A stretch of 61,666 bases of DNA, filler included, from Jimgerdemannia flammicorona (Eukaryota), in the NCBI GenBank assembly GCA_003990765.1. It is 3 parts of 3 records of this genome, joined end to end, with 100 filler letters (N's around TTAATTAATTAA, not from the genome) between each part and the next. Parts side by side here need not be neighbours in the genome. Positions count along the whole stretch, not along the records: positions 1 to 20,500 come from RBNJ01001669.1; positions 20,601 to 41,086 come from RBNJ01001670.1; 1 more part is not named here. One strand, 5' to 3'. Below, one piece after another: positions 4,952 through 59,087 of this stretch (within the stretch, counting starts at the first letter, position 1; the number at the start of each line of letters is the position of its first letter). The notes beneath the pieces are model-generated. The model ran no database searches. It was not told the DNA's origin and was given only the letters and a program-made list of their open reading frames with translations. Made by a program: the position numbers and the translations under genes.

Positions 4952-5489
4952 CTATCTAACTATTAATGATACTTCATAAATTTTATAGACTTTTTTTTAA
5001 AAAATTACTTATTAGTAAAATATTTATTAACTGATTAAACTACTTTTATATTAAATTATATGAGAATTAATAAAATTTTATATTTATTAATTACCAAGTA
5101 TAATAATTTTACTTAATTAGTTTTAACTTTTAATAATGATATTAATTATTAAATATAATTAGTTATATGTATATATTAATTATTAATTACTAATATAATA
5201 ATTTTATCTAAATATATTTATTTAACTTATATTATATTTTATTATTATTAGTTATTAAGTATAACAATCTTATATTTATTTATATTAGCTATTATATTTA
5301 TTAAATAATAACTTTATACTAATTTCTATTAATTAATCTAACTTAGTAACTTTATAATATTGTAACTTAGTAAGAGATTTTATAGTTAGTTATAATTTGA
5401 ACTATAAGATTATAAAGATTCAAAAAATAAAATAACTATCTTCAATATTAAAAGTTTAAAGTTTGAGTTAAGAAACTTCTCTTATATAT

Positions 5490-5885
5490 TATAATATAGT
5501 AAATATAGAACTTAGTGAGTATATATATTAGATTCTGAAATTTATATGAAGGGAGAAAGAGTATATAAAGAAGACTTTTTTTTTTAAATTAAACTAACTG
5601 AGATTTATTCACTCTAGATACTGGAATATTTATATAAGTTTACTAGCTATAAAGTGGACTATAAGTTACTTTTTACAAGTGTTGAATCTTTGATATCTAC
5701 TAGAATTTCAACAATTGTAAGAATTTTAATATCTGCTAAATCTTTAGTAATTATTAAAGTTTCTATATTTGTAAAATATGTCTACTATTTATAAGGTTAT
5801 ACTATATTTGAAAATTGAATTCAGATAATGTAATTAAATATTTATTTCTTTGATTTATATTTCTATTTTATACTATATATTATAT
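5490..5885 (-). repeat. Degenerate LTR of an A-related subfamily (A')
   Basis: Collinear with 8457-8494 + 9701-9750 + 10233-10570. It provides the empty-site sequence for two insertions. Confidence 0.7.
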
Positions 5886-6448
5886 CTTTTCTTTGAATAG
5901 ATTATTTTTAATATAAAAATATCTATTCAAATTCCTATATCTTAATATTTATATATCTATATAGAAATATTTGTGATATATCTAAACAATTGTCAGAATA
6001 TTTTTCAAGGTCTCAAAAGTCTTCAAATAATTAATTCAGGTATTTGTATGTTATCAAAAGTTGGAAAAAATAGATAGTAGTATCTTTTAAAAATTTGATA
6101 ATATCTTATCTTCTATTCTTCAGAGCAGTCTATTATATATCATTTAAAGTCAGATAATAATATCTTCTATTCTTTATAATGGTCTATTCATATATTATCT
6201 TGAGCAGTAAATTATATATTATAAAATAGCTTTCTTCAAATAATTAACTCAGATAGTTTATATATAATATTTTCAGTAAGATAGTGATTTTTTTAACAGA
6301 TAGCATTCTTTAAATAATTAACTTAGATAATAGTTCATATATATATTATCAAAATTGATTAATTCTTATAATATTGTTCCTTAAACTAAGAAGTAATCTA
6401 GCTATTAACTCAATAATATATTCTTCTAGAGTATATTTTGTTTAATAC

Positions 6449-8042
6449 TGTAATAGACCAAAATGTACCACCTGAATTATAACTTAGCCAGATGATGTGA
6501 ACAATTAGCATACTTACTCAGCATGATGTGACTTCCAGTATATCATAGTTACTCATGCCTGCCACACTTATAATTAGTCAAGACACCAGATCAGGATTGT
6601 TTACCTGTGTCCTGAGGACACACTCATGTCTGGCAGACACACTCATGTCCTGTGGACACACTCATGTCCTGCAGACACACTCATGTCCTGTAGACACACC
6701 TGTATCCAGAGGATACACCCAAATATTACCAAAGATAGCAAATCTATAGTTAGCCACATAGTAACCAGATAGCAACCAACTTGTATAAATTACCCCAGAG
6801 ATGAGAGTGAATAAAATCTCAGTCCGAAATACAAATACCAAAGAAGCCTCTAAAGATTGAGCATTGGTCCCCTTTCCACTCCGGTCCACTTTCCGATACA
6901 AAGCTGATTTTGCCGCCGAGTTCAAGGAAGAACTTTGCCACCTTTGGAACTATTGGTTCGCTTGCCAGATAAGCCTGAAGATTTGCCGCCTAAGTTCAAG
7001 GAGAACTTTGCCACCTTTTGAGTAATCCGCTGCTTAAGGAATAAGCCACCATTTCCAAGTTATCCGCATTCCCAGAGAAAGCCACCTTGCCCAAGCCAGT
7101 TTCCAACACAACTTCGCAGTGATCTGTTCACGCAAACGAAGCCAGTCTTTGACTCAACTTTGCCAAGAGACCCTTTCCCAAAGAACACTGCCAGTTGTTC
7201 GTATTCCCAGTTGAAGCCGTCGATTCAGGAAGAATCCATGCCATCATTTCCCAGTTGAAGCCGCTGATTCAGGAAGAATCCGCGCCATCATTTCCCAGTT
7301 AGAGCCCGCCGATTCAGGAAGAATCCGCGTCACCCGCCGTTTTTGAGTTATCCACTGTATTCCCAGTTGAAGCCAAATCCGCGCTGTCCGTCCGAGTTAA
7401 TTCCCAGTTAAGCCGCCGCATTCAAGAAGCCCGCCAAATCCGCATCATCTGCCACTTTCGAGTTATCCGCATTCCCAGAAGAGCCATCTGAGTTGTTCGT
7501 CATTCCCAGTGAGCCCAGTATGGAAGAAACCATGCTATATATTCCCAGGAAGCCTGAGTTATTGAATTACCCACTGCCAGTACAATTCCCAGTAAGGAGA
7601 ATTCGCGCTATCTTCTATTCCCAAAACCGCCGCTTTGGAAAACCCGCACCAAATCAAGAAGTCCGCCAAAACCATCTCGCCAGAAATCGCATACTTTTGG
7701 AAGCCTGTCGTGCTACACAAGATTGTCACACAGAAATCGCATAAGGAGAACCGCTAGATTGCCAGACCGTCACGCATAAGATCGTCGTGCTATACAGAAA
7801 TTGTGCCATTCCCAGTTGACCCAAGAAGGAAAAGACATACCAATCACTGCTACACCCAGAGAACCATCCCAATAAGGAAATCACTTGCAGATATCCAGCT
7901 TTGACTATTATACCACTAAACACCAAGGACCTCAGGAATTTTAGAACATTTTGTTGCTTTTTGACAAAGTAACTGGGGGCTCAAGCCAAACTACATCAAC
8001 CCCCAACCTTGTAATTTGCCTCCATTGAGCTGGCACATTACA
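6449..8042 (+). mobile_element. Long solo LTR (1594 bp) with internal tandem repeats
   Basis: TGTAA...TTACA termini; 4-bp TSD ATAC (6445-6448 / 8043-8046); core AACTTGTATAAAT...GTGAATAAA shared with family A LTRs. Confidence 0.82.
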
Positions 8043-8494
8043 ATACTAATGATTTATAAAAATGAGACTAATACTCAGAATAACCAATTAACAGCAGATG
8101 ATGTAGACAAAATAATATCTTTAAAAGTCAGATGAGTAATCCATATAGTAGTCTGTTTGATATAGTGGTTTATTTAGTATTTTTTAGTAATTAATTTTTA
8201 TAATATTATCTCTCAAACTAAAGAGTAACTTAGCTATTAACTCAATGATATAGTTCTTTATAGAGTATCTATTATTCAATATTAATAGTTTACAGAAATG
8301 AGGCTGATAACTAGAATAATCAATTAATAGAAGATAATATAAAGATAAATATCATATATAATTGTCTATTATCTTCAAAATCAAGCAGTAGTAATTATTC
8401 ATTTTTTAGCTTAAAAGTGAGAATTTATCTTAAATCATCAGCTAATAGACACCAAGTTATAATATAGTAAATATGAAACTTAGTAAGTATATAT

Positions 8495-9700
8495 CTCTTT
8501 CTCTACTATCTTACTGATTATAAGATTTGGTAGGTAATCTTCTGAGTCTACTTTTATAACTTTTACCTCCTCTATCTCAGGTTGGTTTGCTGTACCTGTT
8601 GCAGGGAGGTAATAGGGATGAGTTGTCTCTATTTTAATATTTAATTAGTGCTTTCTTTACTTTTTTGTAGTTTCTAGTATCTCTGGTTATATCTGGGGTG
8701 TTTTTATTTTAGTATGGTGCTTTTTTTTCTTTACTGTCATCAATAAAGTATCATTGTAATATATTATAGATCCCATATAGAGTCAACTAACCTTAGGTAT
8801 TGAGTATCAGTATAGGTTATCTGTAGGTCTCTGGGATCTATAGTGGAGCTCTCTGAGCTTTGATGAGCTTTCCAGTAAGTGCATTTCTAGTATAGGTGAC
8901 TATTTTTCAAGAGGAGTTGAGATGGAAGAGGAGATGCCTGTTACAGATAAGAGAAAGAGCAATTATAGTAGACTAGTAGAATACCAGGCTAGGGGTGGTC
9001 TTTGGAGCTAGGGTGGGTACTGTATTGGTGGGGCCTTCTGATTGATATATAGTGGTTAGATAGTAGGTATTACTCTTAGCTACTTTTGATAATTCATAAG
9101 ATTGGGCTCTGGTTATTGAGGGTGGTTAGGGGGTCTGAGGCTACTCATATCAGATATCTTGACTACACTTAACTGGAACTAAAAGCTGATATAGCAATAT
9201 GATTAAGACCTATAGACTTGAGTAGTAGAGTATTGAGAGTCTCCTCTTACCTTATATGTAAGTCCTCTACTCATCTCATTAGAGAGAACCAGATTCTACC
9301 CACTGTTCTATACTTTGAAGGAATTTTTCTTTATCTATTACTCTTCTTAGGGTAATAGGAGCTATATAAATTAGCTCAGGTATGATCTTATATATATATT
9401 GGAGTTTTGGACATATGCCTTCAGTATATAATTGTTACTTTCTAATGGTAGGAAGAGTATAGTATACAGAATGAGATGTAGGTGACTTTGCTCTACTATA
9501 TCTGATATAGTTGAGCTACTGGATAATAGCTAGCCTAAGTTCAATAGAGATATAGTACTCAGTGAGTAGTGAGAGAGAGTTTTGACCTATATAGTCTAGA
9601 TTCTCTTTCAATAAAAATCCTTAGGACTGTAAGTTTATTAAAAAAATAAAAAATAAAAAATAAAAAATAAAAAATAAAAAATAAAAAATAAAAAATAAAA
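8495..9700 (+). mobile_element. Poly(A)-tailed non-autonomous retroposon (repeat C), copy 1
   Basis: ~1.15-kb body shared with 51341-52532 and 55795-56925; (A6T)n tail; flanked by a ~15-bp duplication CTTAGTAAGTATAT. Confidence 0.8.
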
Positions 9701-9750
9701 CTTAGTAAGTATATCAGATTCTAAAATTTATATGAAGAGAGAAAGAGTAT

Positions 9751-10232
9751 TGTGACAGTACAACCAAATTTGGAAGAAGGAAATAGGGAATAGACACTTG
9801 ATTGCACCCATTCCCAAAGTAGTATAGCTTTATAGTTAGCAGTTCTTGATTTTGACATTGTCTAAATTCTTAGACATTGTCTAAATTTTAGACATTATCC
9901 AAATCGGATACCCCAATTTAGTATAGCATTTAGACATTGTCCAAATGTTTTGACAAAGTCCAAATGACTCATTTATTACTTAGCCACCCTCTCATAGCTA
10001 GCAAACTTGTATAAATAACCCAGTATCTTCGAGTAAATAAACCTCAGATCGAAATAGTTCAAAAAGCAAAGAGATAGCAAAGGAACTAGTAAGCCTGTGG
10101 GCAGATACATATACTTCGAACTCACCCACCCTCCCCTACAACTTCAAGAGACTCTGCGAGAGTCAGAACAGTCAAGTTTTCAAGATACAGAAATCTGACA
10201 TACTTTCAAGAGTAAGTGTCTGCTACATTACA
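9751..10232 (+). mobile_element. Family A solo LTR
   Basis: TGTGACA...TTACA termini; 4-bp TSD GTAT, confirmed by the empty site GAGTATATAAAG at ~5559-5570. Confidence 0.92.
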
Positions 10233-10736
10233 GTATATAAAGAAAACTTATTATTTTTTTAAATTAAACTGACTGAGGTTTATTCACTCTAGATACTGGG
10301 ATATTTATATAAGTTTGCTAGCTATAAGATGACTAAGTTAAAACTATAAGTTATTTTTTATAAATATCAAATCTTTCAATATCTACTAGAATTTTAATAA
10401 TTGCAAGGATTTCAATATTTGCTAAATCTTTAACAATTGTTAGAGTTTCTATATTTATAAAATATGACTGCTATTTGTGAGGCTAAACTATATTTGGAAA
10501 TTAGATTCAGATACTTTAATCCAATATCTATTCTCTTGATTCATATTTCTATTTCATACTATATATTATAATATCTAAGAAAAATAACCTTTTAGCTATT
10601 AGAATAAATTAAATAGATATTAAGACAAAACTCTATCCAGAAACTACTATAAGTTAAGAAAGATCAAGTTAGAAGACTTTTAAAAATAATATATTATATT
10701 ATATTAAAATATTAAAAATATAAATATATTAAATAT

Positions 10737-12336
10737 TGTAATGGTGATCTCAGAATGATGATATCAGTATAAGAGACAGTAATTCCTTACAAGCCACCAG
10801 ATTGAAGTACAAGAAGATCATATAGTATAACTCACCCAAGCTATAAGATGAGTAATGATGACTAACTATGAGTCATTGAGACCACAATATAGATATCTCA
10901 AGGAATATAAAAGAAGAATCAAGGAACTGCAGTAGTAGTAACTCAATAAGACCCACTAAATTCTGAAATAGTTCAAGGACTTATTATAAACAAAATACCT
11001 ACTGCTCACCCAACCTCAAGATTAAGGAACTACCAAGGTCTCTCAGTCCAGGAAAGGATATTCCAAGACATCTGAAGAGCCATAAGGACTTGCACAACAA
11101 GGACTCCTAGTGTCAACCTGAGTACTGGTGACCCTTATCATTATATTCTCTACTACTATAAAATAGAAACAAGAATCACCATTGTTACCAAATACCTCCA
11201 GATGTAGTAAGAATATGAAATAGGAAATCTCCTCTGCCAGGAATTCCCTCAAGCCAGTCCTTAAGAACTACAAGATGCCATTCTTATAGATATATATAAA
11301 ATAAGGACAGCTAAGAAGATTCATCAGATCTTCAGACATATATCATGATTGATTCCCAACTTAGAATATATCAGAGTCTCAGACTTCAGAGATCTGTCAG
11401 CCCATTATATCAATGTACTAGAAGCCATGGTGGCTGCAGAAGCCCAGTCCACTATCACCCTCAATAGTAATAAAGTAGAAGACTTCTGGTATCCCATCCT
11501 CCAGAACAACTCAGATCAGTTCCTATAAGGATTGATCTCAGTATTCCAAGGCCCAAGCATCCAGGTTAGACCTCCCTAAGACCCCACATTTGTTCCTAAT
11601 TTTGTGGAAGAGAACCTCATAGACTAGAGAGCCCCAGATCTCCTTACTCTCCCCACCACCACTGAACATAATGACATCATCAGCAATGATGTCATCCCAC
11701 ACAACATATATAAAATGCACAATATACATGAAATATGTGACCTATATAACAAGACAAATGAAATGTTTGCAGATCTCATCTCCTTCAGTGATGATGAGAA
11801 TGAAGCCCTTATGGTCCTGAACTTTCTGCTCTGAGTTCTTGGTAACACCAAATTCTGCCAGCATTCTTTTCCTATATAACAGTTAGTCCTTCCACTAGCA
11901 TTCTGATTGTGTGACTCAGAATTCCTCCAGCATCCTTTTCCTATACCACTGAATTCTACCAGCACTTTGAACTTGTGCAATTATCTGTACCAACACTGGA
12001 ATCTGTATCAAAAACTGTAGTTTTCTGTATTCTAATATTTTATTTGATTATTGAAATTTATATTTAGCCTTATATCTTAGCAACCATTAAATTATATTTT
12101 GTATAAATATCCCTCTTATTTCCTTTGAAATAAAGTCAGTCAAGTTCACTTACCCTCAATTCCTTACAAGCAATCTAAGAGATAACAAGACAGTTTAAAG
12201 TTAAGAAGTTTGAGGACTATAAGATGAGAATATACTCCAATAAGAACTTGCTTATAACAAACTTGTAGTTAGTCTAAAAGATATACCTTGAAGAGAATCT
12301 GATATATTTGAAGGACTCAGTGACCACTATGTGATA
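10737..12336 (+). repeat. Family B 5' LTR, with decayed U3 ORF at 10995-11834
   Basis: Direct repeat of 17067-18671 and homologous to 20601-21940. Confidence 0.92.
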
Positions 12337-14554
12337 ACTTGGTACTCATTGGCTGGTAATTTAAGATGAATCCCTTACTTTTAAGCTGAAAAACAAATAA
12401 TCACCACAATAACTACCCTGACTACAAGAGTCACCCCTGCAAGAATTTAAGACAAGATGGAAATGCATCCCCCCACATTCTATAGATACTACTGAAGAGT
12501 CAATCCTGATCTTCATTGAAGACTTTGAACAATTTGCCACTGTACAAGCCCTCAACATGGATGTACAATTGGCCCTTTTACCAGTTAGCCTCAGAGGACC
12601 TACCAGAGATAAGTTCAATACAGCTACTATTGCTAATACTAGTGCAGCCAAACTTGTCAACATGAAGACCTTCCTCAGAACTACATACTATATCAAAGAG
12701 ACCAAGCAAGCTCTCAAGAATCAACTCAACACTATATATCTACCAGAGACTCAGTGAAGATCCTAACTCATTCTATATCTGAATCTGCCACCAGATTGTC
12801 TTAGCTAGCTATGATGACCACCTCAAGGAACAAATAGTAGATTCAACCTTCCTCAAAGGAGTTCACTCTGAAATTGCCCTAGCAATCTAGTCTACCATAG
12901 CTACACTGACTCTTGATCAGAAAGTGGTCTTTGTACAGAGATATTGAACTGCCAGACACCTTACTAAACACTCAATAGAGAAAATAACTAGTATCAAGAT
13001 AGAGCCATCAAAGCCAACTAGTATCATGCCCACCACAGTTGTAAACAGACAACCATCCCCACCTACCCCCAAGGTGGCCAAAGCTGACTCAGTGGAGGAA
13101 CTTGCCAAGCAGTTTGCTGAGATAACTATATACTTTGGTGATATTGTTAGAGAAGTCTGAAGTGCCAATAGGAGACTAGTACAGAGATTTGTAGCTACTA
13201 TAGAAGAATGCAATATCACATGCTTCAGATGTAGAGAAGAAGGCCACTATGTAAAGAGTTATATGATCAAAACAAGACATAAAGCCCAACTAAGTAATGT
13301 TACCAGAACTAGAGAATAAACCAATATAGTAGTCATTGAGAAGATTGGTGATACTGATGATGAAGAATACTATAAAGAGTCTGAATTCTACCCTATCACT
13401 GAAGATACCAGAACCCAGTCCAAGCTCTATGACAAGAAAAGCAACCATAAGCCAGTTGGAAGACTAAAGAAGACCCCAGCTATCACTATTCAAAGTAAGA
13501 TCCAATCTAAGGAGATTGATCAAGATATGGAGTTAGATGAAGCTGTCTGCCAAATCATTGAAGACACTACTTCAGTCTCAGAAGAAAGTGAAAGCAAGAA
13601 GGAACAGAAGCTGCACAAGACCAAGATCCACCAGTATGATATCTACAAGGACCTCAAGAAATAGAAGGTCAATGCTACTTTTGGACAGCTAGCCAAAGTC
13701 CCTGCCTTCAGACAGCAGTTGAGAGTAGGACTTGTAACTACTGCCAAGAATCAAGAGTATAAGATTGTAGAAGCTCACAATACACAAGAAACATTTGAAG
13801 ACTTAGATGAAGAATCTGAAGGCCAGTGCAAGACATCAGCCTATATCTCATATCAGAATGAAGATTGTATCTTTGATGCCATCATTGATACTGGTGCTAG
13901 AGGATGTCTTATGAGTAAGAAGACAATTGACCACCTAGGCTGGAACATTGAAAAGTCCACCAAGATGATCTATGTCACAGCAGATAGTATATGAGCTATC
14001 CTCCTTGGCAAAATCTGAGAAGTCCCCATTAAGATAGAAGGAGCTACCATCCTAGTAGATGTGATTGTTACAAGAACCACTAACTATGACATTCTCATTG
14101 GCAATCAATGGCTTTACAAGGCTAAGGCCATCATTGACCTCAATGCCCAGAAGGTGCAGATCATCAACTATAGAGGAAGAAAGGTATGAGTCTCTATCAA
14201 TGTTCATAAAGGAGTTCTACCAGACATAGAGGAAGAAGATGAAGAGGATACAGAAGTCTTCATACACTTGGTGAACAAGAACAAGAATAAGACACCTAAG
14301 CTCACAGATGAGCAGTGATACAACAAGATCATCAATAGCTATACTCCTCAAGGAAGATGCCCTCATAGTACTAGGATGTACTGCTCTGAATACCTGAATG
14401 ACTGCTGGTTCTGTATCAGTGAAGTCAGGAAAATCTGCCAATAGAAGTATGAGCAAGAAGCTGCTGAAGTAAAAAGAAAAGCTGAAGAAGATGACCAGCC
14501 CCCAGAGCTTCAAGCTGACAGTGATGAAGAGGAGAAACAAGAACCAGACATCAC

Positions 14555-14965
14555 TCTCAAGGTCAAGAAGTTTTGCCCTAAAGCCAACATCCCAGAATAT
14601 AAGACTGAAGGAGTCATAGGAATAACTTGCCAGCATTTAAGATGCTACTCTTGAACCACAGATCACTACTCTACTTGGTATCAGAATTGGAGTCAAGTTG
14701 CCAGAGAACCATGCCAGAATTATCAAGACCAGGAGCAGTCTGGCCAAAGTGAAATCTCAGTTGAAGGAGGAGTAATTGACCCTGATTACACTGGTGAAAT
14801 CTTCCTCATAGTCAGGAATCACAACCCCACCACTCCATTCAAAGTCAAGAAGCATGACAGAATTGGCCAGATGCTGATCCATGAAATCAAGAAGCCTAAG
14901 ATCACCAAAGCCATTAAACTCATTAAGACTAAGAGAGAAGAACAAGGCTTTGGATCTACTGAAAA
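14555..14965 (+). pseudogene. Retroelement dUTPase (family B)
   Basis: KTRSSLAK, GGVIDPDYTGEI, DRIGQML and QGFGST motifs, with frameshifts. Confidence 0.9.
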
Positions 14966-17066
14966 AGGAGTCTATACTGCTACCAAGATTACCAAACTTG
15001 AGCATGAGAAAGACAAGGACCAGAATAAGCACACATATATCATTAGAGAGAACTTTCCCCTAGAAGAACAACTTCTCAAGATTTTGCACCAGAATGAAGA
15101 AGTACTTGCTACAGACTTCAGGGATATCTACAATCAAGAACTCAAGTACTATCATGAAGTTGACACTAGCAATACTAAGCCCATCTACTAGAAAGCTAGA
15201 TCTATACCACTTGTTTATAGAGAATGGCTATGAGTAGAACAGAACTATGAGTCATATAAGCTCAAATACTTAGTAGTAGTTTAGACAGTAAACAAGTTCC
15301 ACTACTACCTAGCTGGGAAATACTTCACTATTCAAACAGACCATTCTGCTCTTGCCTGGCTATTCCACACTCTGAACTCCAAAGGAATATATGTCAGACA
15401 GATCTACAGACTGCAAGAGTATAACTGTACTGTCAAGTACTGCTCAGGGAGAACCAACACCAATGCTAATGTACTCTCAAGAATACTCCAAAACACCTCC
15501 ATCAATACTATTCAACATGAATAAGGAGTTATACTATGGATTAATCAGCTATCTTGGGCAGCAGAAGATGCCCAACCACCTCAAACTCTGGACAATTACT
15601 ATCATCAACCAGACTTGGAAACAGTTTGAACTAGACAACACTACACTCAGAAAAGGAGGAAAGCTTGTAATATCTGAATACAAGAAGTATCAAGTAATGA
15701 AGGAAGTATACAAACAAGGATACCTAAGAGGAACCAATATATATGATAAGACAAAAAGAACTATATAGTGGCCCAAGATGGAAGAAGACCTATACTAATT
15801 TATCAAAGAGTGTGACAAGTGCCAAAAACAGAAACAAGATCAGCAAGACCAGACATCTGGATCACCAAGAATTGAGCCTACCCTCTTCCATCATATTGCA
15901 ATAAATATCATTGGGTCACTTCCAGTAACACTATCAGGAAACCACTACATTATAGTTATTTTAGAACTCTTTACTAAATGGATAGAAGCAGGAGTATTAC
16001 AAGAAGCCAATGCCCTCTCTATAGCTGACTTTCTACACTAAGAAATCATCTGCTACTACAAGACACCAAAGCAAATTACCACAGATCATGGCACAGAATT
16101 TGTCAATGAATTCTACAAGATAATATATCAAAAATACAAGATTCAGTACATCAATACCACTATATACCACCCTCAAGGAAATAGACAGACAGAGAGAACC
16201 AATAAGACTCTCAAGAACATTCTGGTGAAGATCTCAAACATATACAAGAATTGGGATAACTACCTCCCAACTGCCCTCTCTGTCCTACAAGATATATGAT
16301 CACAGAGTACACACTTTACCCCAAGAGAACTGCTCTTTGGAGAAGAAGATTCTGATGGCACCTCAGCCAAAAAACTAGACCTAACTTGGAAATGAGTTGA
16401 CTCAGAAATCTGGACACTATACTAAATCAGGAAGAAGGCTGAAGATTACATCATCAAGTTATAAGCACTGATGAGGAAGAATGCAGAAAAGAATCACAAG
16501 ATCATCCAAATCAGAGAAAAGGTCCTACTATATCAAAATATGGTAGAAGCCTCATAGTCATGAAAACTGGAGTCCAAATGGGAAGGACTCTTTTATGTGC
16601 AAGATATCAAGAGAACTACCTTCTAGCTTAGAAAACTCATAGAGATTATACTATCTACCACAGTATACAGGAACAGACTCAAGAAGTACCATAAACCTAT
16701 ACAAGAGAAGTAAAACATAATGACTACCCATGAGGTTCTAGTCTATAAATCATAACAGTATATTCTGTGACCAGCTGGCAATCTGTCTGGACTATTCTCT
16801 AAGAGATATAGTACCAGCAACTATTCATCTGTGAGACTTTCAAAGCTAGAGGAGTTCAAACCATCAACTGATTGGTCAAGATCAGAATTGGGCCCTTGCT
16901 ATATGAAGGGAGCAACTCTTCACCATTATACCAAAATATATAGAGAAGATGCCAGCTCATAAATATCACTTTTTGACCCCCTGCCAGAGGTTATAGGATT
17001 AGCAAATTTTTCAGAACTGGACCAATGAATAAGAATGTTCAAGAAGATCCTTATTCAGGAGAAAGA

Positions 17067-18671
17067 TGTAACAGTGATCTCAGAATAATGATATCAGTAC
17101 AAGAGACAGCAATTCCTTACAAGCTACCAGATCAGAGTATAAGAAGATCATATGGCATAACTCACCCAGGCTATAATATGAGTAATGATGACCAACTGTA
17201 AGTCATTGGGACTACAATACAGACATCTCAAGAAATATAAAAGAAGGATCAAGGAACTGCAGTAGCAGCAACTCAATAAGACCTACTAAATCCTGAAATA
17301 GTTTAAGGACTTATTATAAACAAAATGCCTGCTGCTTGCCAAACCTCAAGATCAAGGAACCACCAAGGCCCCTCAGTCTAGGAAAGGATATTCCAAGACA
17401 TCTGAAAAGCTATAAGGACCCATACAACAAGGATTCCTAGTATCAACCTGGGTACTAGTGATCCTTATTATTATATTCTCTACCACTATAAAATGGAAAC
17501 AAGAATTACCATTGCTACCAAATGTCTTCAGATGTGGCAAGAATACGAAATAGGAAACCTTCTCTACTGGAAATTCCCTCAAGTCAGCCCTCAAGAGCTA
17601 TAAGATGCCACTCCTATAGATATACATGAAATAAGGACAGCCAAGAAGATTCATCAGATCTTCAGATATGTACCATAGTTGATCTCCAACTTGGAATATA
17701 CCAGAGTCTCAGACTTCAGGGATCTGTCAGCCTACTGTATCAATGTACTAGAAGTCATGGTGGCTGCAGAAGCCCAGTCCACTATCACCCTCAATAGTGA
17801 TGAAATAGAAGACTTCTGGTATCCCATCCTTCAGAACAACCCAGATCAGTTTCTGTAGGGATTGATCTCAGTATTTCAAGACCCAAGCATCCAGGTTAGA
17901 CCTCTCCAAGACCCTACATTTGTTCCTTATTTTGTGGAAGAGAACCTCATAGACTGAAGAGCTCCAGATCTTCTCACTCTCTCTGCTGCTGCCAAATATA
18001 ATGATGTCATTAGCAATGATATCATCTCATGTGATATATGTGAAATACATAATATATACAAAACACATAACCTATGTGATGAGATGAATAAAACATTCAC
18101 AGATCTCATCTCCTTTAGTGATGATGAGAATGAAGCCCTCATAGTCCTGAACTTTCTGCTCTGAGTTCTTGGTAATACAAAATTCTGCCAGTATCCTTTT
18201 CCCATATAACAGTTAGTTCTTCTACTAGCATTCTGATCTTGTGTGACTCAGAATTCTTCCAGTATCCTTTTCCTATACCACTGAATTCTACTAGTACTCT
18301 AAACTTATATAACTATCTATACCAATACTAGAATATATACCAACAACTGTAGTTTTCTGTGTTCCAGTATTTTATTTAATTATTAGAATTTATATTTAGT
18401 CTTATATCTTAGCAACTATTGAATTATATTTTGTATAAATATCTCTCTTATTTTCTTTGAAATAAAGTCAGTCAAGTTCACTTACTCTCAATTTCTTGCA
18501 AGTAATCTAAGAGATAATAAGACAGTTTAAAGATAAGAAGTTTGAGGACTATAAGACCTTAGGAAGGTACTCCAATAAGAACTTACTTATAACAAACTTG
18601 TAGTTAGTCTAAGAGATATACCTTGAAGAGAATCTAATATATTTGAAGAACTCAGCAACCACTATGTAATA
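17067..18671 (+). repeat. Family B 3' LTR, with decayed U3 ORF at 17325-18164
   Basis: Follows the polypurine tract; direct repeat of the 5' LTR. Confidence 0.92.
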
Positions 18672-19332
18672 ATATATACTTAAAGTTAAAAATAAAAAAA
18701 ATCTATAATATCAATATTAACTATTATTACTTAATAGATTTGGAATAATATTTAATGACAAACTTAGTTAATAATAAAATTTAAATATATTTAATTTATT
18801 ATATAAATTATTAAAAAATAAAAAATAAAAAATAAAATAACTTATATTTTTAGTTATATTTATTATTACTATAATTATTATAAGCTATATAAATATATAA
18901 ATTATAATATTATATCATATTTAGCTAGATTATTTTTATAGTTAGTTACTGTAATAGTTTCTAAGTTTATATTAATAAAATATTTTCAAAGATAAATTAT
19001 ACAAAATAAAAAATAATATATATAATAATTACAACATAACTATAAATTTTTATATAAAATAGTTTTATTCATCATAACTACTATTTATTTTAACAGAATA
19101 TCTTCTGGTAAAATTTTTGAAAAATTATAAATATAAAAATATAGTGCACCACACTTATACTCAACCTTTTGATTATAACTTTATATTGTACTTAATAAAA
19201 AAATAATAAAAATTATAAATTAATAGAAAATCCTATTGAGTTTAATCAAATAGAGAGTTTTTTTTGATATTGTTTATAAATTTTAGTAAATTAGTTTTTT
19301 ATATCAATTATCACTATTTTTTATATTTATAT

Positions 19333-20472
19333 TAAGGCCCGCCACAATTTCGGCCTTAAATCCATATACTTTTGGCCTTAAATCTATAGTATTGTGACAT
19401 ACTTTTCAAAGCCAAAAAATCAAAATCTGGCTTTAAAAAGAAATTGTAAGTCAACCTGCTCAACCCGCTTTTCAAGGTGCTTTCGAGGCCGCTCAAGGCT
19501 GCCATTTGAACCTACTCAAGACCGCCGTTCGAGGCTGCTCAAGGCCGCCGCTCAAGGCCGCTAAGGCCGCTCAAGGCTGCCATTCGAGGCCGCTCAAGGC
19601 CGCCGCTCAAGGCCGCTCAAGGCCGCCGCTCAAGGCCGCTCAAGGCCGCTCAAGGCTGCCGTTCGAGGCTGCTCAAGGCCGCTGTTCGAGGCCGCTCAAG
19701 GCTGTAGTTCGAGGCTGCCGTTCGAGGCCACTCAAGGCCGCCGCTCAAGGCCGCTCAAGGCCGCTCAAGGCCGCCGTTCGAGGCTGCTCAAGGCCGCCAT
19801 TCAAGGCCACTCAAGGCTGCAGTTCGAGGCCACCGTTCGAGGCCGCTCAAGGCTGCCATTCGAGGCCACTCAAGGCTGCCGTTTGAGGTGTGAATGGCAA
19901 GCAAGCATGAACGTAAACGCTGTTCACGCCTGCTCGTCATTCACACCCGTCTGCCATTCACGTTCACGTCCGCCATTCACGTCTGCTTGCCACTCGGTGA
20001 GTTCATTTATTAAAAATGCTTAAACAGGATTATGTCTATAATGGTAAGCTGTATAATAATAATAAACAAAGGCCGGAGGGTGAGAGAATTGACAGTCAAC
20101 TCAATAACTCGAATAGCGGAGCAACAACTCAATCACTTTGAATTTCCACATAAGGTCATAACTGAACGGCAGCCTTGAGTGGCCTCGAATGGTGGCATCG
20201 AACAGCGGCGGCCTTGAATGGCTTCGAACATTGGCCTTGAGCGGCCTCGAATGGCGGCTGTGAGCGGCCTCGAACGGCGGCCTTGAGCAGCCTCAAACGG
20301 TGGCCTTGAGTGGCCTTGAACAGTACCCTTGAGCAGCCTCGAACAGTGCCCCGAACAGCAGAGCGGCCTTGAGCGGGTTGACTTATTATGGCTGGCTTAC
20401 AAATTCTTTTTAAGTGCTAGAATTTGTGCTACCATGTGAATGAATTATCCCCATAGGGGGTCGGGGCTTTAA
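19333..20472. repeat. Foldback-like element with inverted GGCCGCTCAA minisatellite arrays
   Basis: GGCCGCTCAA/GTTCGAGGC units at 19485-19890 and their reverse complement at 20160-20380. Flanking sequence is also inverted (GTAAGTCAACC...CCCGC vs GCGGGTTGACTTA). Confidence 0.7.
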
Positions 20473-20500
20473 AAAAAAAATTTCCTTCAGACTTCTCCTT

Positions 20501-20600
20501 NNNNNNNNNNNNNNNNNNNNNNNNNNNNNNNNNNNNNNNNNNNNTTAATTAATTAANNNNNNNNNNNNNNNNNNNNNNNNNNNNNNNNNNNNNNNNNNNN
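20501..20600. other. Assembly gap with artificial TTAATTAATTAA spacer
   Basis: N run with a central all-frame stop linker; the same structure occurs at 41087-41186. Confidence 0.97.
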
Positions 20601-20879
20601 GACTGACTTTATTTCAGAGGAAATAAGAGGGGTATTTATACAAAATATAATTCAATGGTTGCTAAGATATAAAGCTAAATATAAATTCCAATAACTAAAA
20701 CTACTAAGTTCCAGGGCTGGTATTGTTGTTTGTACAGGTTCAGGATGCTGGCATTATCCAGTGTTATATCAAAATGCTGGTGCTGGAACAATTTCGCGTC
20801 ACCTCAGAATACCGGTGCTAGTATTATCTGGTGTTACATGAGAATACCGGTGCTGGCATTATCCAGTGTAACAAAGAAC

Positions 20880-21698
20880 TTAGAGCAGAAAGTTCAGGAC
20901 CATGGGGGCTTCATCATCATCATCATCACTGAAGGAGATGAGATCTGCGAATTCATCATGCAGGTCGCGCGTCTCGCGTACCTCGGGTATGTCGCGTGGG
21001 ATGACGTCATCGCCGATGACGTCATCACGTTCGGCGGGGAAATCGGGGACAAGATTTGGAGCTCTCCAATCTATGAGGTTCTCTTCCACAAAATAGGGGA
21101 CAAATGTGGGGTCTTGGGGGGATCTAACTCGGATGCTTGGGCCTTGGAATACTGAGATCAATCCTTGCAGGAATTGGTCTGGGTTGTCCTGAAGGATGGG
21201 GTGCCAGAAGTCTTCTACTTCTTCACTGTTGAGAGTGATAGTGGACTGGGCTTCTGTAGCCACCCTGGCTTCTAGTGCATTGATGCGGTGAGATGACAGG
21301 TCTCTGAAATCTGAGACTCTAACATACTCCAAGTTGGGAATCGACCATGGTGCATGCCTGAAGATCTGATGGATCTTCCTAGCTGTCCTCGTTTCACGTA
21401 TATCCATGGGAGTGGCATCTTGTAGCTCTTGGGTGCTGGCCTGTGGGAACTCCCGGCAGAGGAGGTTTCCTATTTCGTACTCCTGCCACATTTGGAGGCA
21501 TTCGGTGGCGATGGTGATCCTTGTTTCCATTTCACGGCGGTAGAGGATAAAGTGATAGGGGTCTGCAGTTCCCAGGTAGACACTAGGAGTCCTTCTTGAG
21601 CGGGTCTCCATGGCTCTTCTGATGTCTTGGAACATCCTTTCTTCAACCGAGGTGCCTTGGTGGTTCCTTGACCTTGAGGTTTGGCGGGCGGCAGGCAT
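20880..21698 (-). CDS. LTR(U3)-encoded protein of unknown function, 272 aa
   Basis: Uninterrupted ATG-to-stop ORF. It aligns end to end (MPAA...MVLNFLL*) with decayed copies in two other LTRs, and the frame is kept in the 3' LTR copy despite length differences. Confidence 0.8.
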   Translation of the reverse strand: MPAARQTSRSRNHQGTSVEERMFQDIRRAMETRSRRTPSVYLGTADPYHFILYRREMETRITIATECLQMWQEYEIGNLLCREFPQASTQELQDATPMDIRETRTARKIHQIFRHAPWSIPNLEYVRVSDFRDLSSHRINALEARVATEAQSTITLNSEEVEDFWHPILQDNPDQFLQGLISVFQGPSIRVRSPQDPTFVPYFVEENLIDWRAPNLVPDFPAERDDVIGDDVIPRDIPEVRETRDLHDEFADLISFSDDDDDEAPMVLNFLL

Positions 21699-21778
21699 TT
21701 CGTTTGTGGTAAGTCTTTGAGCTAATTTGGGATTGGTGGTTCTTGTTGGTTGCTGCTACTGCAGTTCCTTGATCCTTC

Positions 21779-21822
21779 TTTTATATTCTTCAGGATACTT
21801 GTACTGTGGTCACAATGACTCA
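21779..21822 (-). promoter_or_regulatory. Candidate internal promoter for the U3 ORF (TGAGTCA + TATAAAA)
   Basis: AP-1/Gcn4-type heptamer at 21816-21822 and TATAAAA at 21779-21785, ~80 bp upstream of the ATG. TATAAAA is present in all three LTRs and TGAGTCA in two. Confidence 0.4.
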
Positions 21823-21940
21823 CAGTTGGTCATCATTGCTCATCTCATATGCCGTATGATCTTCTTGTGCTTCGATCTGGTGGCTTGCAAGGAAAGGCTG
21901 TCTCCTGTGCTGATGTCATCATTCTGAGGTCACCGTTACA

Positions 21941-23205
21941 CTACATACAGCTAGCCCTCAAGAAGCTCATGGAGCAAGGCCTCTATATCAAGCCCAAGAA
22001 GTGCAAGTTTGCAGCTCAGGAAATTGCCTACCTAGGACACCCCATCAATCAGACTGGAATCCATATAGATCTTATAAAGATTGAGGCTGTTGCAGTCTAT
22101 CCAAGACCCAGAACAACCACAGAAGTCCATACCTTCCTTGGACTGGCCTCCTACTATAGAAGATTCATCAAAGGATACTCCAATATTGCAGCACCTATCT
22201 ACAAGCTACTCAAGAAGGAGACCAAATTCGAATGGACTAAGAAATACCAAGAAACCTTCAATAAACTCAAGATCAGGTTGACCCAAGCACCCATTCTCAG
22301 AAGACCAGATTGGAACTTAGAGTTCATCCTGCAGACAGATGCAAGTGCTATAGGACTTGGAGCAGTCTTAGCTCAGAAGAAAGATAGATATGAATATGTC
22401 ATCTCCTATACAAGCTGAGATACCTGCAGAGCAGAACAGAACTATGAGTCATGCAAGCTTAAATACTTAGCAGTAGTTTGGGTAGTAGACAAGTTCCACT
22501 ACTACCTAGCTGGGAAATACTTCACTATTCAAACAGACTATTCCGCTCTTACCTGGTTGTTCCACACTCTGAACTCCAAAGGAATATATGTCAGATAGAT
22601 CTATAGGCTGCAAGAGTATAACTGTACTGTCAAGCACTACTCAGAGAGAACCAATACTAATGCTGATGCACTCTTAAAGACACCCCAAAACACCTCCATC
22701 AAGACTATTCAACATGAATAAGGAGTTATACTATGGATTAATCAGCTACCTTGGGCAGTGAAAGATACCCAATCACCTTGAACCCTGGACAATCACCATC
22801 AACCAGACTTGAAAACAGTTTGAACTAGACAACACTATACTCAAAAAAGGAGGAAAGCTTGTAATACCTGAATATAAGAAGTATCAAGTAATGAAGAAAG
22901 TACATGAACAAGGATACCTAGGAGGAATCAACACATATGACAAGGCAAGAAGAACCACATGGTGGCCCAAGATGGAAGAAGACCTGTGCCAATTTGTCAA
23001 AGGGCATGACAAGTGCCAAAAACAGAAACAAGATCAGCAAGATCAGGTATCTGGGTTATCAAGAATTGAGCCTATTCCCTTCCACCACATCACAATGGAT
23101 ATCATTGGGTCACTACCAGTAATACTATCAGGAAACCACTACATTATAGTTATTGTAGACCTCTTTACCAAATGGATAGAAGCAGGAGCATTACAAGAAG
23201 CCAAT
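21941..23205 (+). mobile_element. Family B pol fragment: RT C-terminus, RNase H, integrase N-terminus
   Basis: KPKKCKF...YLGH, FLGLASYYRRFI, LQTDASAIGLGAVL, WWPKME. 22430-23205 closely matches 15236-16010. Confidence 0.92.
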
Positions 23206-23560
23206 CCCCCAGCCACAGCATCTTCAGCCCCTATGCTCACATCCCTCACCTGGGTACTGCTCCCCCTACCAATGCTAGCCTTGTCCTTTCCCTCAGCAGC
23301 ACCAGCCCTAGCTCCAACTGGCCATCTACTCTCCTTTACCTTATCTGCAAAGCTAGGGGGGCCAGGCCTTCCCCCACTTCTACCTGACACCAGTCCTTTG
23401 CCATATCCCTCTCTACCCTTCAACCCTCCAAAGGCCCCTATCTCCAGTCTCCCAGGTCTACCTAAATTAGCACACTCATCTGAACTCTTGCTTGATGATA
23501 TTTTTATAGTACCTTTTCTCTGAGTTGTATCAAAAACCATTATCTGAAGTTGGTGTAATA
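23206..23560 (-). mobile_element. LINE 5' fragment (ORF1 N-terminus)
   Basis: Gly-rich frame with SFADKVK, like TFADKVR in the LINE at 1308-1880. Confidence 0.65.
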
Positions 23561-23750
23561 TGAATTATATAGGAGAAAGGTGTCATTCAGATGAAGCATC
23601 CATCATTTTCCAATAGAGGTGATATAGATAGAGTGAATGAAGTTGTTCAAATGCATTTTGCTTCTGCTAAGTAATGAGGTCTTGTATAGTTGTAGTATAT
23701 CTTAGTCTTGAGTTGATAAGTGTAGTTTGTAAACCTTTGATAGATGAAAT

Positions 23751-23785: not shown

Positions 23786-26700
23786 TTTTTTTTTTTTTTT
23801 TTTTTTTTTTTATAGTCTCTTGGACTCTATCATTTATTACTAGTCTATTAATAAATTTACAGTATCTCCTCCCACTACCTGATCCCAATAGGAGAGCCTC
23901 TCCCCATATCATCATAAAGAAAGACCACTATCTCACCCACTACCCCCACCCTCCCCCCACTCTGCCTACAGATATTTTCCACTAAGCAACGTCTTCGACC
24001 ACCTTACAACTCTCAAACCAAGCCAACAGCCCATCAAGGTATCCTCCATAAGGCAATGCCAATGTAACAACTAGGCCCCCAAGCCTAATCTCCTTCCATT
24101 CTCAAAGACAAATAGCCAGTAACTGACCAGTCCCACCCAAATCACCAAAACCCAGCCTAAAGTAAGTCATTTCTTTCCCACTCCCCCAACCAGTCTATTC
24201 CTCAAATCCTCCCACCGACCCTATATGCCATCACCCTGACATACTACTCTCAAGTGATCCCCAACAACCTGCCAAAAGTTATTAAGTACCTCACACTCTC
24301 CCAGCCAATGTTCAGGCATCTGCACATATCTTTCTTCCTGCTCTATATTGTGACACTCCTCACAATCAAAGCAACCCCCCTTGATAAGGTGACCTAAGTG
24401 GAAGTTGAGCATTATATTCCTCCTCAGTATATACCACCAGACCACCCAGTACTTCAGTGGCATCCACCTCCTCACCTCAGCACTCCAGGCCCAAATGCTA
24501 TGCCAGTTCCACTCTTCTCTGATACCTACTCTCTGCCATCCACTAGGTCACAGATCCTAACCCTAACTCTAACCCTTTGACAGTCTATCCCATCATCAAT
24601 ATCAAACTCAATTAAGGAAATGCCTCTCAGCAGCACTCAGTTCCATCTCAACATTGCTGGGTCCCAAGCCATCTCTTCTTTATTACCCTATCAATACATT
24701 CCAATGCAATATGCTCCCTCTGCTACTCTCTACCAGAAGCCTTTGTAATGCAATTGTACAGTATTCTGAAGCCCAACCAATGAAAGAAGATCTCTTATTG
24801 AGCCTCTTGATGAGAACCTCATCTCTCAGACCTTCTGCAATAGAGGAATCCAACTGCCCCCTCACAATTCTACTACTCTCTTTAACCACCATGCTCTCAA
24901 GCAATGTAGTCTCTTTGGAAAGTCAACCAGCCTAAGCCCTCCTCTTGCTACCAGTAAGAATAAGACCTCCCAGCCAATCTGACTCCTTCTTCTAGCCCAG
25001 ATCTACTCCTTGGCCAGCTTCATCAGTCATTTCACTACTCAGGCTAAAAAGTCCAGATGATATACCAGATACCTCAGCTTCAGCAGCCAATAGGTGTTCA
25101 AAATCAAGACATACCCTGCTAGAGATAAGTGGTGACCCCCCTAGCTCTGCAGGGCCTCCTCCCAAATTCCAACCCTTTGCTCTCACCAGAGCCTAGGTAG
25201 AACTGATCTATATACTGACAAATAAATGCTCAAGTACTGCACTACCTCACCAGTAGGGATGATTGTTCTGATGACATCCCCTCTCACCAGACCATTACCC
25301 AATACCATTGTTTCACACTTATGCTAATTAAGCTTAGCCCCAGAGTTCTCCTCATACCACTCTATCATCTCCTTGAGCTCCTCAATATCCACAATGGACT
25401 GCAGGCCAACCACTATATCATCTGCAAAGGCCCCCACTTTCCACCCAATTCCAAAGACAGAGAGTACCTCTATCTTCTGCCAGATTCTGTCTATCAGGGG
25501 CTCCAGGGAAAGGGCATATAGAATGGGGGACAGTGGGTCCCCCTGGAGCACCCCCCTACCCAGGGGAAATGATACCCTGCTATGTCCATTACATATGAGC
25601 ACAGCCCTACTCCCTTCCAGTAGACTGATCATTGCTGACTGGAACTGGTGTGGTACCCTAATCCTATCCAAACTTTTGCTAGCCAGACTTGCTGCACCCA
25701 GTCATAAGCCTTCTCCTGGTCCAAGAAGACCAGTCACCCATCTAGTCTACAAGCTTGTGCCCCTTCAATAACTCCATATACCCAGGCTGTACCATCTCTA
25801 ATGAGCCAGCATCCTACAAAGCCCCTCTGCTCAACTCCCAAGACTTGCTGGGCCACCTTCTGAAGTCTTGCAACCACCACCTTAGTCACCAACTTTCTGT
25901 CCATGTCTAGCAGCATAATTGGCCACCAGTTCCTCTAGTCCTCTCACCTTCCTTTGTTCTTATAAAGCAGTATCACCAGCCTCAGATCCTGCTCTCCCAC
26001 CCATCTCCCTATTGGTAGTATAAGATCATACAATGCCATCATCTCACTCAGTACTCCTGGAACTTCCACCATTTTCTTCCAGAAGTCCCAGGGCAGACCA
26101 TCCTCTCCAGGTGCTATACCTGGAGTTGTCATAGCAAGAACCTGGTGGATCTCTTCCTCTTGTACTGACAACACTAAGTCACCCAGCCCATCCACTCATG
26201 GAGGGTGCCAATCTTCCAATACCCGGTCAATGGTAGCAGCATCTGCCCCACCCTCCTCCTCACTCTACAATCCACTCCATTACTCCTTTAATGTACCAAG
26301 AATGTCTTGTATACCATGCACCAGTATACCATCAGAGTCAAGCACCCCCTCTCACCTTTGCTGTACCCTTCTTGCCTGAAGGGCTCTCATGAGATACTTA
26401 GAGGGCCTCTCCCCTTCCTCCAAACATTGCCAGTGAAGCTGTGCTGCCAAGCTCTGTACCTTTGCCTCCTCATCATCCTGCAGCACCTGTTGTAATTCAC
26501 CAATCTCCAATTTCGCCCTCAATAATCTCCAATCCTCTCCCCCCTCTACCATCATTAGCCCTGCCCAATCTTCCAAGAGTCTAGTCAGTCTAACAGAAGC
26601 CCATCTCACCCATCACTTCCTCTGCTTCCCAGTCTCCCTACCAGCCTCACTCCAGTAGACCCTGGTCATCTCTTTCATCCTCATCTACCAAACACCAACT

Positions 26701-27575
26701 GGGGTGCCCTCCCACCTCCAGCTCTCTACCCTCAGTTGAATGTCCTCCACCCACTCATCCCACCAGATTCTATCATCTAATAAAGAGAAGTTGAGACACC
26801 AATGTCCAGGCCCATCCCCACTCTCCCCAAAATGTCTCTGCCCTAATAACCCTCAATAATCTGACCAAGGATACCATTCCACCTTCAATGACTTCCAAAC
26901 ATCCAAGCCCCAGCAGCTGGCCATCAATATCCAGTCAATCCTTGTCCCCAAACCCTTTGCCCAGTATGTGTATACCATCCTATCTCCCCAATACTCCCTA
27001 CCAGCATCTATCAGAGCACTAAGCCTTTCCACATTCTTCCACACTGCCAACCCTCCACTCCTACTCTCAGCTCCCCAGCCCTGCTGCTCAGCTATACCAT
27101 CAGCAGTTACATCTGGATTTTTTTCCAGATTGGCAGTCTTATTGCCATCAGCCATCATGTTCACTCTAGCCACTATACCTCCAGTACCACTGCCCCCACT
27201 GCTAAGGGCTACTCCCCCATAGACTGCTGCCTTCTCCATCTCTTTGCCTTTTCTCAACCATCCCTCCAGCCCAGATGCCTGCCACCTCTCCTTCACTACC
27301 TCTATAAAACTTGCCCTCCCAGACCCCTGTCCTCCACCACCTCCTCCTCCCCTCCTATATCCTCCCATCAGTAGCCCCCTCATACTCCCCCCCAGACTGG
27401 GGTCTTTCCCCACATGCTGCCAGTTGAATGCACTAGGGCCACCCTGCCTAATATGCACCTCAGATTGCCTATTGGTCACTATGTTGTTAGTCTCTTTTCT
27501 CTAAAAACAATATTGTAAGTATCTTTCAAAGATTGTATAACCTGAATGGTACTGGAGAAAGATAACTAAGTATTT
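23755..27575 (-). mobile_element. L1/Tx1-like LINE with internal ORF1-EN deletion
   Basis: Poly(A) tail (T run 23755-23811); RT motifs APGEDGLP, QGDPLSP and AFADD; EN end RIDWIL...WSDY; imperfect TSD GAAATA(G/C)AGTT. Confidence 0.9.
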
Positions 27576-28640
27576 AGTAGAAATACAGTTCTTCTTATTT
27601 CAGTTTGAGTTTGGTACTTCAGTTTCCTTTTATGATAGTATAGTATACCAAAACTAGTTAAAGAGGTTCAGGGTTGATCTCATGGTTGTAGTACTTCTTC
27701 TAGTATTCTTGTGTCTTAACAGTAAGTTCTTATACTTGCTAGTATATTTTGTATAACTAGGCGATCTCTTCAGTAACTTGTTTTGTGATCTTATATGTAG
27801 TATCTGAATTAGTTCTAAGGGTGATCTGTGATTTTGGTGGCTTAGAGGTTGTGCACTTATACTAACTAGCACTTGGTTAGTAGACTTATTATATTGACAT
27901 AGATTATAGCTGGCAATATAGTTCTTAATTTCCTTGACCATGCTTGGCCAATGATAGCAGTATTGGATATTCTTGACAGTCTTCTCAATTCCCAGGTGAC
28001 CAGCAAGAGAGGAGTTATAGTGTTCTTACAAAACCTTATAACATAGGTTTATATTTTCAGGTAGATAAACTTGGTCTTGATAATAGATCAGGTTATTCTC
28101 AACAGTATATATATCCTTGAGCTCATTCAAGAAAACTCTAGTAGTGACTGTGTCTTCTTTATAAGCTTGCCTGATTTGGTCTAGATTCTGATACTAAGGT
28201 AACTTATATAATTATAATAGGTCTGGACATCTTGATAAGACATCTGGTACTACAAGTGTCTTGTAAGGCTTGTAGATGATCTTCAGGTTGAAGGTTTGAA
28301 GTTTGAGGCTCCACTTGGCTTATAAGTATAACAGAGTAGGCTGGGTGTTAATGTACTTAAGAGATTAATAGTCAGTAATAACATCAAACTCAATATATTC
28401 TAGATAGTATTGCCAGTGGTCTAGTGTATATATTATTGCTAGTAGTTCCTTTTTGTAAGTGGCTAACTTCTGTTTAGCTGGGACCAACTTGTAGGACTTA
28501 AAAGCAATAGAGTGATATTCTTTGCCATCATCTTGTGACAATACTACTATAATGGCAAAATTTGATGCATCAGTGGTGATCATAAATTTTAGATCTTGAT
28601 CTGCATTATGTAGGACTAGAATATAGGTCAGATAGTTCTT

Positions 28641-41086: not shown

Positions 41087-41186
41087 NNNNNNNNNNNNNN
41101 NNNNNNNNNNNNNNNNNNNNNNNNNNNNNNTTAATTAATTAANNNNNNNNNNNNNNNNNNNNNNNNNNNNNNNNNNNNNNNNNNNN
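41087..41186. other. Assembly gap with artificial spacer
   Basis: N run with TTAATTAATTAA. Confidence 0.97.

Positions 41187-52493: not shown

Positions 52494-52534
<41 letters not shown>

Positions 52535-59051: not shown

Positions 59052-59087
<36 letters not shown>

Follow-up and report, generated by a model that had tools for sequence, protein, structure and literature searches.

Context-dependent C-to-T decay of transposons in a genomic window of Jimgerdemannia flammicorona

By which process do the transposable elements (TEs) of a fungus outside the ascomycetes decay, and which of their cytosines are struck? This question is raised by a stretch of 61,666 nucleotides from Jimgerdemannia flammicorona (hereafter the window), whose host is likely an early-diverging fungus (Mucoromycota, Endogonales) and not an ascomycete. 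The window holds two kinds of eukaryotic DNA: gene zones with a normal CpG content, and nested remains of Ty3/Gypsy elements that are nearly free of CpG and in which Pfam domains of protease, dUTPase, reverse transcriptase (RT), RNase H and integrase were recognized. An initial annotation had claimed that repeats in this window are hypermutated at CpG and CpA in a way that resembles repeat-induced point mutation (RIP). The analysis reported here confirmed a C>T decay that is restricted to TEs, strand-symmetric and dependent on the 3' neighbour of the cytosine, in the order CpG >> CpA >= CpC >> CpT. To judge from the sequence, this pattern probably reflects the loss of cytosines methylated by an enzyme of the DIM-2 type rather than homology-triggered RIP.

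Mutation spectrum of a Gypsy element and its long terminal repeats

The mutation spectrum was derived from a Gypsy element (element A) and a younger relative (Y) of its long terminal repeats (LTRs), with the following parts (ORF, open reading frame; aa, amino acids; o/e, observed/expected ratio).

10737-12337, plus strand: 5' LTR of element A, without CpG; carries a decayed LTR ORF; 86.9% identical to 17067-18672
12338-17066, plus strand: element A, internal region, interrupted by stop codons and without CpG
13665-13994, plus strand: protease of element A (Pfam)
14655-15191, plus strand: dUTPase of element A (Pfam)
15799-16299, plus strand: integrase-like ORFs of element A (Pfam and ORFs)
17067-18672, plus strand: 3' LTR of element A, with the polypurine tract AGGAGAAAGA immediately before it
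20601-21943, minus strand: younger LTR copy Y, used as outgroup, cut by the N linker at 20501-20600; 40 CpG, CpG o/e 0.54
20880-21755, minus strand: intact 291-aa ORF in Y, of which both LTRs of element A carry decayed copies
21944-23523, plus strand: decayed Gypsy pol fragment (RT end, RNase H, integrase zinc domain), adjoining Y

Directly downstream of the 5' LTR lies a TGG-containing sequence that resembles a primer-binding site. None of the ORFs of at least 90 aa scanned in the internal region (12338-17066) matched RVT_1, and the element may therefore have an internal deletion; a target-site duplication was not made out at its decayed ends. A second Gypsy dUTPase domain (1981-2319, minus strand) is part of another Gypsy element. 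Y is approximately 75% identical to each LTR of element A, and within the adjoining pol fragment the stretch 22429-23209 is 88% identical to positions 15232-16015 of element A. The 291-aa ORF belongs to no Pfam family; in a protein search, six matches at 59-93% identity were obtained among metagenome and JGI proteins.

Of the limits given by the initial annotation, 10737 is correct and opens the 5' LTR of element A, and 21940 corresponds to 21943, where the young minus-strand copy begins. The codon changes it listed are visible in a three-way alignment (ATG>ATA where the ORF begins in the 5' LTR, TGG>TAG, CAA>TAA).

As the LTRs of one element are identical at insertion, differences between them represent post-insertion mutations, which were polarised with Y. 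Rates are given per ancestral site and lineage, by the 3' neighbour of C and for both strands. The LTR pair of element A differed at 209 of 1604 aligned sites (199 transitions, 10 transversions). Y polarised 169 of the 209 differences and left 40 unpolarised; the polarised changes comprised 143 C>T or G>A, 22 A>G or T>C and four transversions. C>T changes had occurred at 27/56 CpG sites (0.48, an underestimate because sites lost from both LTRs are uncounted), 75/394 CpA sites (0.19), 31/260 CpC sites (0.12) and 9/384 CpT sites (0.023). When the 3' neighbour was required to be invariant in all three sequences, which removes the two-step route via CpG, the counts were 59/304 for CpA, 22/144 for CpC (approximately 0.15) and 6/256 for CpT. 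In Fisher tests on these counts, CpA and CpC both differed from CpT (P=2.7e-11 and P=2.3e-6, respectively) but not from each other (P=0.36). The rate of transitions at A:T pairs was 22/1546 (0.014), and C before T therefore behaves as background. A CpA rate no higher than that of CpC or CpT would, according to the initial annotation, have refuted its claim; CpA changes about eight times as often as CpT. The annotation had overlooked that CpC is affected almost to the same degree as CpA, with CpT alone exempt.

The base on the 5' side of C had a small effect (rates 0.10-0.16), and all four NCG contexts gave rates of 0.44-0.50. Both strands were affected equally (C>T 87/646, G>A 56/458), and the two types of change were unclustered within each LTR (36 runs versus 35.3±4.0 expected, and 38 versus 34.4±3.9). 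The rate of change was even along the LTR (0.13-0.24 per 200 columns). As regards the +2 base, CAG was changed less often than CAH (14/116 versus 60/272, P=0.024) and CAC most often (19/62), in a sample too small to build on. APOBEC-type deaminases would leave strand-biased G>A on the coding strand and have their target set by the 5' neighbour of C; the weak effect of this neighbour therefore points to recognition of the DNA methyltransferase type and not to such a deaminase.

The excess of transitions and the C>T direction, taken by themselves, would also fit APOBEC-like editing of retrotransposon complementary DNA before integration, or a genome-wide bias that is hidden in genes by purifying selection. 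These explanations are very improbable. Editing before integration disagrees with the post-insertion origin of the LTR-pair differences, with the equal involvement of both strands and with a rate that is set by the 3' and not the 5' neighbour; the genome-wide bias is at odds with the composition of non-coding DNA described below.

On Y itself, derived T's showed no context bias (CpA 0.078, CpC 0.071, CpT 0.091). Such an absence of non-CpG bias is expected if CpG decays about ten times as fast as CpA (an estimate) and the CpG of Y is partly lost.

Replication in other repeats and course of the decay

The ranking CpG > CpA > CpC > CpT was found in every pair of repeat copies compared, with five further repeat families of the window covered. 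The copies referred to here are the following.

2648-4675, minus strand: second Gypsy element, gag/protease region, the less decayed of two copies; GC 0.42, CpG o/e 0.11, CpA/TpG o/e 1.28
52537-54559, plus strand: heavily decayed partner of 2648-4675; GC 0.28, CpG o/e 0, CpA/TpG o/e 0.75, TpA o/e 1.17
52-743, plus strand: repeat family Q, less decayed copy, CpG o/e 0.26; a further partner lies at 23919-24610
40282-40972, minus strand: repeat family Q, more decayed copy, without CpG
8496-9685, plus strand: repeat family S, first of three copies, without CpG
51342-52542, plus strand: repeat family S, second copy, without CpG
55740-56919, minus strand: repeat family S, third copy, without CpG

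Transitions dominated these other pairs as well (55-253 of 59-294 differences). In the internal pol pair, the share of C turned into T was 31/118 and 21/109 for CpA, 13/72 and 9/58 for CpC, and 4/118 and 4/125 for CpT. Between the two gag/protease copies it amounted to 168/308 for CpA, 74/182 for CpC and 98/317 for CpT; C or G in 2648-4675 faced T or A in 52537-54559 at 353 sites, and the opposite was seen at 88. The corresponding numbers for family Q (52-743 versus 40282-40972) were 96 and 35. The gradients that had initially been described between 2650-4485 and 52715-54570 and between 1-750 and 40290-41040 were thereby recovered. Among the three copies of family S, singleton changes affected 49/107 CpA, 19/43 CpC and 40/372 CpT sites (P=2.6e-14 and 3.1e-7).

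The distribution of the decay was followed through the window with the gene zones as reference. In addition to the elements listed above, the following intervals were considered.

42194-51069: gene zone, internal control; 509 CpG, CpG o/e 1.14
46088-47830, minus strand: LRR protein (Pfam), in gene zone 42194-51069
48442-49698, plus strand: BTB/SPRY protein (Pfam), in gene zone 42194-51069
57176-61666: second CpG-normal zone; 183 CpG, CpG o/e 0.94
23990-34255, minus strand: nested Gypsy remnants in early decay, with RT, RNase H and integrase; 26 CpG in 10.3 kb, CpG o/e 0.05, CpA/TpG o/e 1.32
51070-57175: late decay block of 6106 bp; CpG 0, CpA/TpG o/e 0.78, CpT/ApG o/e 1.63, TpA o/e 1.16, GC 0.29

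Loss of CpG was confined to TEs. TE blocks had a CpG o/e of 0-0.1 and, at early stages, a CpA/TpG o/e of up to 1.3-1.5; in the gene zones, CpG o/e was 0.94-1.14. CpG was absent over 10158-17545 (7388 bp) and over 51070-57175 (6106 bp). In the gene zones, CpG o/e was close to 1, CpA/TpG o/e 1.05 and CpT/ApG o/e 0.83-0.92; the interval 19340-20500 was likewise CpG-normal (o/e 0.92). Non-coding AT-rich DNA in the gene zone kept a CpG o/e of 0.71-1.27 (e.g. 42001-44000, GC 0.28-0.30), which argues against the genome-wide bias mentioned above. A CpA rate no higher than in unique intergenic DNA was also named by the initial annotation as a refutation; CpG is retained in the unique DNA of the window.

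From the genes via Y to the block 51070-57175, the stages of decay form a continuous, smooth age series. CpG o/e and CpA/TpG o/e were 0.54 and 1.23 in Y, 0.27 and 1.40 in block 1-2000, 0 and 1.17 in element A (with a CpT/ApG o/e of 1.43), and 0.01 and 1.02 in block 34256-41086. GC was down to 0.12 in block 18673-19339.

RIP is commonly diagnosed by two indices with thresholds of TpA/ApT > 0.89 and (CpA+TpG)/(ApC+GpT) < 1.03. Only the oldest blocks satisfied both (4821-6824, 7787-10157, 18673-19339, 41187-42193 and 51070-57175), with values of 1.10-1.22 and 0.70-1.00, respectively. Element A (0.93 and 1.33) failed the second, substrate index, and block 23990-34255 gave 0.84 and 1.52. In the younger blocks, the decay of CpG keeps replenishing the CpA/TpG pool.

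These values bear on a RIP-like process, in which DNA would be sensed as repetitive and then undergo active mutation; the agent would be an enzyme resembling a cytosine methyltransferase, in this case DIM-2-like and independent of RID. Such a process would account for massive C>T change only in the repeats of the window, for the passing of the classical indices by the oldest blocks, and for CpA as a main non-CpG target with a rate about eight times background, a high value for partly methylated sites that decay passively. We nevertheless regard it as rather unlikely. CpA is not the dominant target, being exceeded by CpG and roughly equalled by CpC both in the LTR pair (P=0.36) and in family S (49/107 versus 19/43). 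Strand clustering is absent, the gradient of decay is smooth and not all-or-none, and element A, taken whole, lies above the threshold of the substrate index. The genome has been reported to consist of 73-77% repeats. Three minisatellite arrays of the window (19482-19888 and 20206-20344, which are mutually inverted, and 50278-50694) lie in CpG-normal DNA, and repetition by itself would therefore be insufficient at small scale.

The young copy speaks against recognition of repeats as well. The LTR/pol family represented by 20601-23600 is abundant in several soil metagenomes (four contig sets compared). In one of them (X1), 2914 contigs match this interval at >=80%, 386 of these at >=99%, and the variant places comprise 295 transitions and 38 transversions. 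Despite these 2914 contigs and two copies in the window that are 75% identical to it, Y keeps an intact ORF and 40 CpG, without a CpA bias.

Methylation as a candidate cause

According to the favoured explanation, decay through DIM-2-type methylation, cytosine methylation would single out TE blocks as chromatin domains, its preference being CG > CA >= CC >> CT, and the marking enzyme would most likely be a DIM-2-like DNA methyltransferase. Methylated C would turn into T over evolutionary time, by deamination that may be spontaneous or enzyme-assisted. CG sites would be lost first, with a transient rise of TG and CA, and CA and CC sites would follow. The predicted end state is AT-rich, TA-rich DNA in which the leftover C stands mostly before T. 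Genes would remain intact by lying outside the marked domains; we infer that chromatin state, and not homology, would act as the trigger.

The closest parallel is found in Zymoseptoria tritici, in whose TEs Dim2-dependent 5-methylcytosine (5mC) has been reported at 43-61% of CG, 10-22% of CA, 3-8% of CC and <0.01% of CT sites (PMC8016269). The ranking of mutation rates in the window is the same as this ranking of methylation (CG > CA > CC >> CT). In both fungi CT is essentially exempt and the effect is confined to TEs, and in Z. tritici, as here, CA sites of TEs fall while TA sites rise (PMC8016269). A DIM-2-like enzyme is also what a published inventory offers for J. flammicorona. Dataset S1 of PMC9963178 assigns three proteins to the DIM2 class for J. 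flammicorona AD002 (1187, 1038 and 1085 aa); their domains are BAH and C5-methyltransferase. The rows of this species pass from KMT5 (9055) to DIM2 (9427-9440) and on to KMT2 (10264), and the blocks of DNMT1, RID1 and DNMT5 begin at rows 9179, 9500 and 9546. From these jumps it follows that the species has no row in the DNMT1, RID1 and DNMT5 blocks of that dataset, and the lack of a RID row there also counts against the RIP-like process. The same paper describes DIM-2-like homologues in Endogonales and Glomeromycota and RID-1 as exclusive to Pezizomycotina (PMC9963178).

Several points weigh against the methylation explanation. First, the approximately 8-fold excess of CpA over CpT is large for partial non-CG methylation with spontaneous deamination alone. 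Second, more than 98% of the Dim2-linked mutations of Z. tritici are reported to fall on CA, with CG little mutated (PMC8016269); in the window CpG disappears ahead of the other sites and the decay of CpC almost keeps pace with that of CpA. As CpG is lost fastest here, the analogy is incomplete. Z. tritici is moreover an ascomycete that also has RID (PMC8016269), and dependence on an enzyme of this type is putative in the present case. Third, Neurospora DIM-2 has been reported to favour CpT (PMC8016269), and a "DIM-2 preference" is therefore not a constant of the family. Fourth, a review states that early-diverging fungi have largely replaced 5mC by N6-methyladenine. Finally, among 40 of 473 variant places between the pol fragment and soil metagenome sequences, for which ancestral neighbours were not established, the fragment had T against metagenome C at 19 (CpA 5, CpC 7, CpT 7), with no sparing of CpT, and C against metagenome T at six.

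In Z. tritici, Dim2 is described as promoting C>T changes at CA in mitosis, "a mitotic version of RIP" (PMC8016269), and this proposed mutator provides a precedent for the RIP-like process. It would be possible, though doubtful, that the heterochromatic repeats of Endogonales are subject to an active cytosine mutator that depends on a DIM-2-like enzyme, is independent of RID and targets C before G, A or C but never before T. If so, RIP-like mutagenesis would be an ancient trait of the DNMT1/DIM-2/RID enzyme superclade, older than Dikarya, and not an invention of the Pezizomycotina.

In its canonical form, known from Pezizomycotina such as Neurospora crassa, RIP is RID-dependent, premeiotic, triggered by homology and CpA-preferring (PMC4352252, PMC8016269). 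Under such a trigger, single-copy DNA escapes and every duplicate beyond a threshold of length and identity is struck. Like the process seen here, it produces C:G>T:A changes in repeats, hits both LTRs and yields AT- and TpA-rich DNA; such transitions dominate the divergence of repeat copies in the window too (143/169 polarised changes). Unlike in canonical RIP, CpG is the first target here, CpC is about equal to CpA and strand clustering is missing. No RID is reported for Endogonales in PMC9963178, and the present genome is rich in repeats and retains young copies. In Basidiomycota and in Tuber melanosporum, decay of CpG to TpG/CpA is found only in TEs, as in the window, and Tuber has CpG and CpA signatures (PMC4352252, PMC3318451); unlike this CpG-type decay, the one described here extends strongly to CpA and CpC. 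Pucciniomycotina show hypermutation specific to TpCpG (PMC3318451), whereas the 5' base of CpG is irrelevant here (0.44-0.50).

The initial annotation had proposed a RIP-like or a non-CG-methylation-driven defence. The methylation branch is favoured because CpG exceeds CpA and CpC, both of which far exceed CpT, strand clustering is absent, the gradient is smooth, the young copy lacks an excess at CpA and CpC, and RID is missing from the published table. CpA as the hallmark proved too narrow, since CpC is equally involved.

A footprint of this kind was not anticipated by earlier surveys. A kingdom-wide k-mer screen reported repeat-enriched RIP-like signatures as unique to ascomycetes (PMC12543289). 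Its table S1 gives 231 Mb, an N50 of 10,860 and 73% repeats for J. flammicorona, and k-mers were counted only on scaffolds >50 kb (PMC12543289); with an N50 of about 11 kb, this limit may explain why a signature in this species was missed. RIP signatures were also described as not detected in Mucoromycotina (PMC8647823), and our literature search found no published report of such TE decay for Endogonales. Against these screens, a TE-restricted footprint at CpA and CpC is notable, the more so in a fungus listed with DIM-2-like methyltransferases only. CpA and CpT signatures have been associated with RID/Masc1, and signatures limited to CpG with enzymes of the Masc2 type (PMC4352252). The footprint described here would sever the tie proposed between CpA signatures and RID (PMC4352252), and would mean that outside Dikarya the decay of transposons is shaped by non-CG cytosine methylation or by a mutator linked to it. 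It would also offer a sequence-only read-out of the site preference of a methyltransferase in an unculturable fungus.

Further features of the window

Identical linkers of the form N44-TTAATTAATTAA-N44 occupy 20501-20600 and 41087-41186. They are artificial joins between three contigs whose adjacency is uncertain. The public sequencing runs that share parts of the window are soil metagenomes, the best of which shares 0.30 of the words of the window; none covers half of the window or more, and no RNA run is among them. A J. flammicorona protein was found to be a relative of the BTB/SPRY protein in the gene zone (40% identity, 54% coverage, E 4e-44; protein search). The LRR protein had a single match. 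Among the top Atlas clusters, one consists mainly of Mucoromycota and others are nematode or haptophyte.

Within the CpG-free transposon zone sits a CpG-normal island of 960 bp (6825-7786; 49 CpG, o/e 0.91), which has no Pfam match and, at 7204-7329, includes a 44-bp tandem repeat. The minisatellites at 19482-19888 and 20206-20344 are CpG-rich and have a unit of 23 bp, with repeats such as AAQGRSRPLKAA and several frames open.

Scans of the window with Rfam and for tRNAs gave nothing relevant to the C>T decay. They included a eukaryotic small-subunit ribosomal RNA (rRNA) match of 203 nt in the gene zone at 58277-58479, plus strand (RF01960, 78 bits, model positions 34-594), whose length falls far below that of an rRNA gene and which may represent a fragment. 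Finally, the Gypsy-derived blocks 1-2000 and 24000-34000, with a GC of about 0.5, have a GC skew of -0.3 to -0.5 (plus strand C-rich) that is unaccounted for by strand-symmetric decay.

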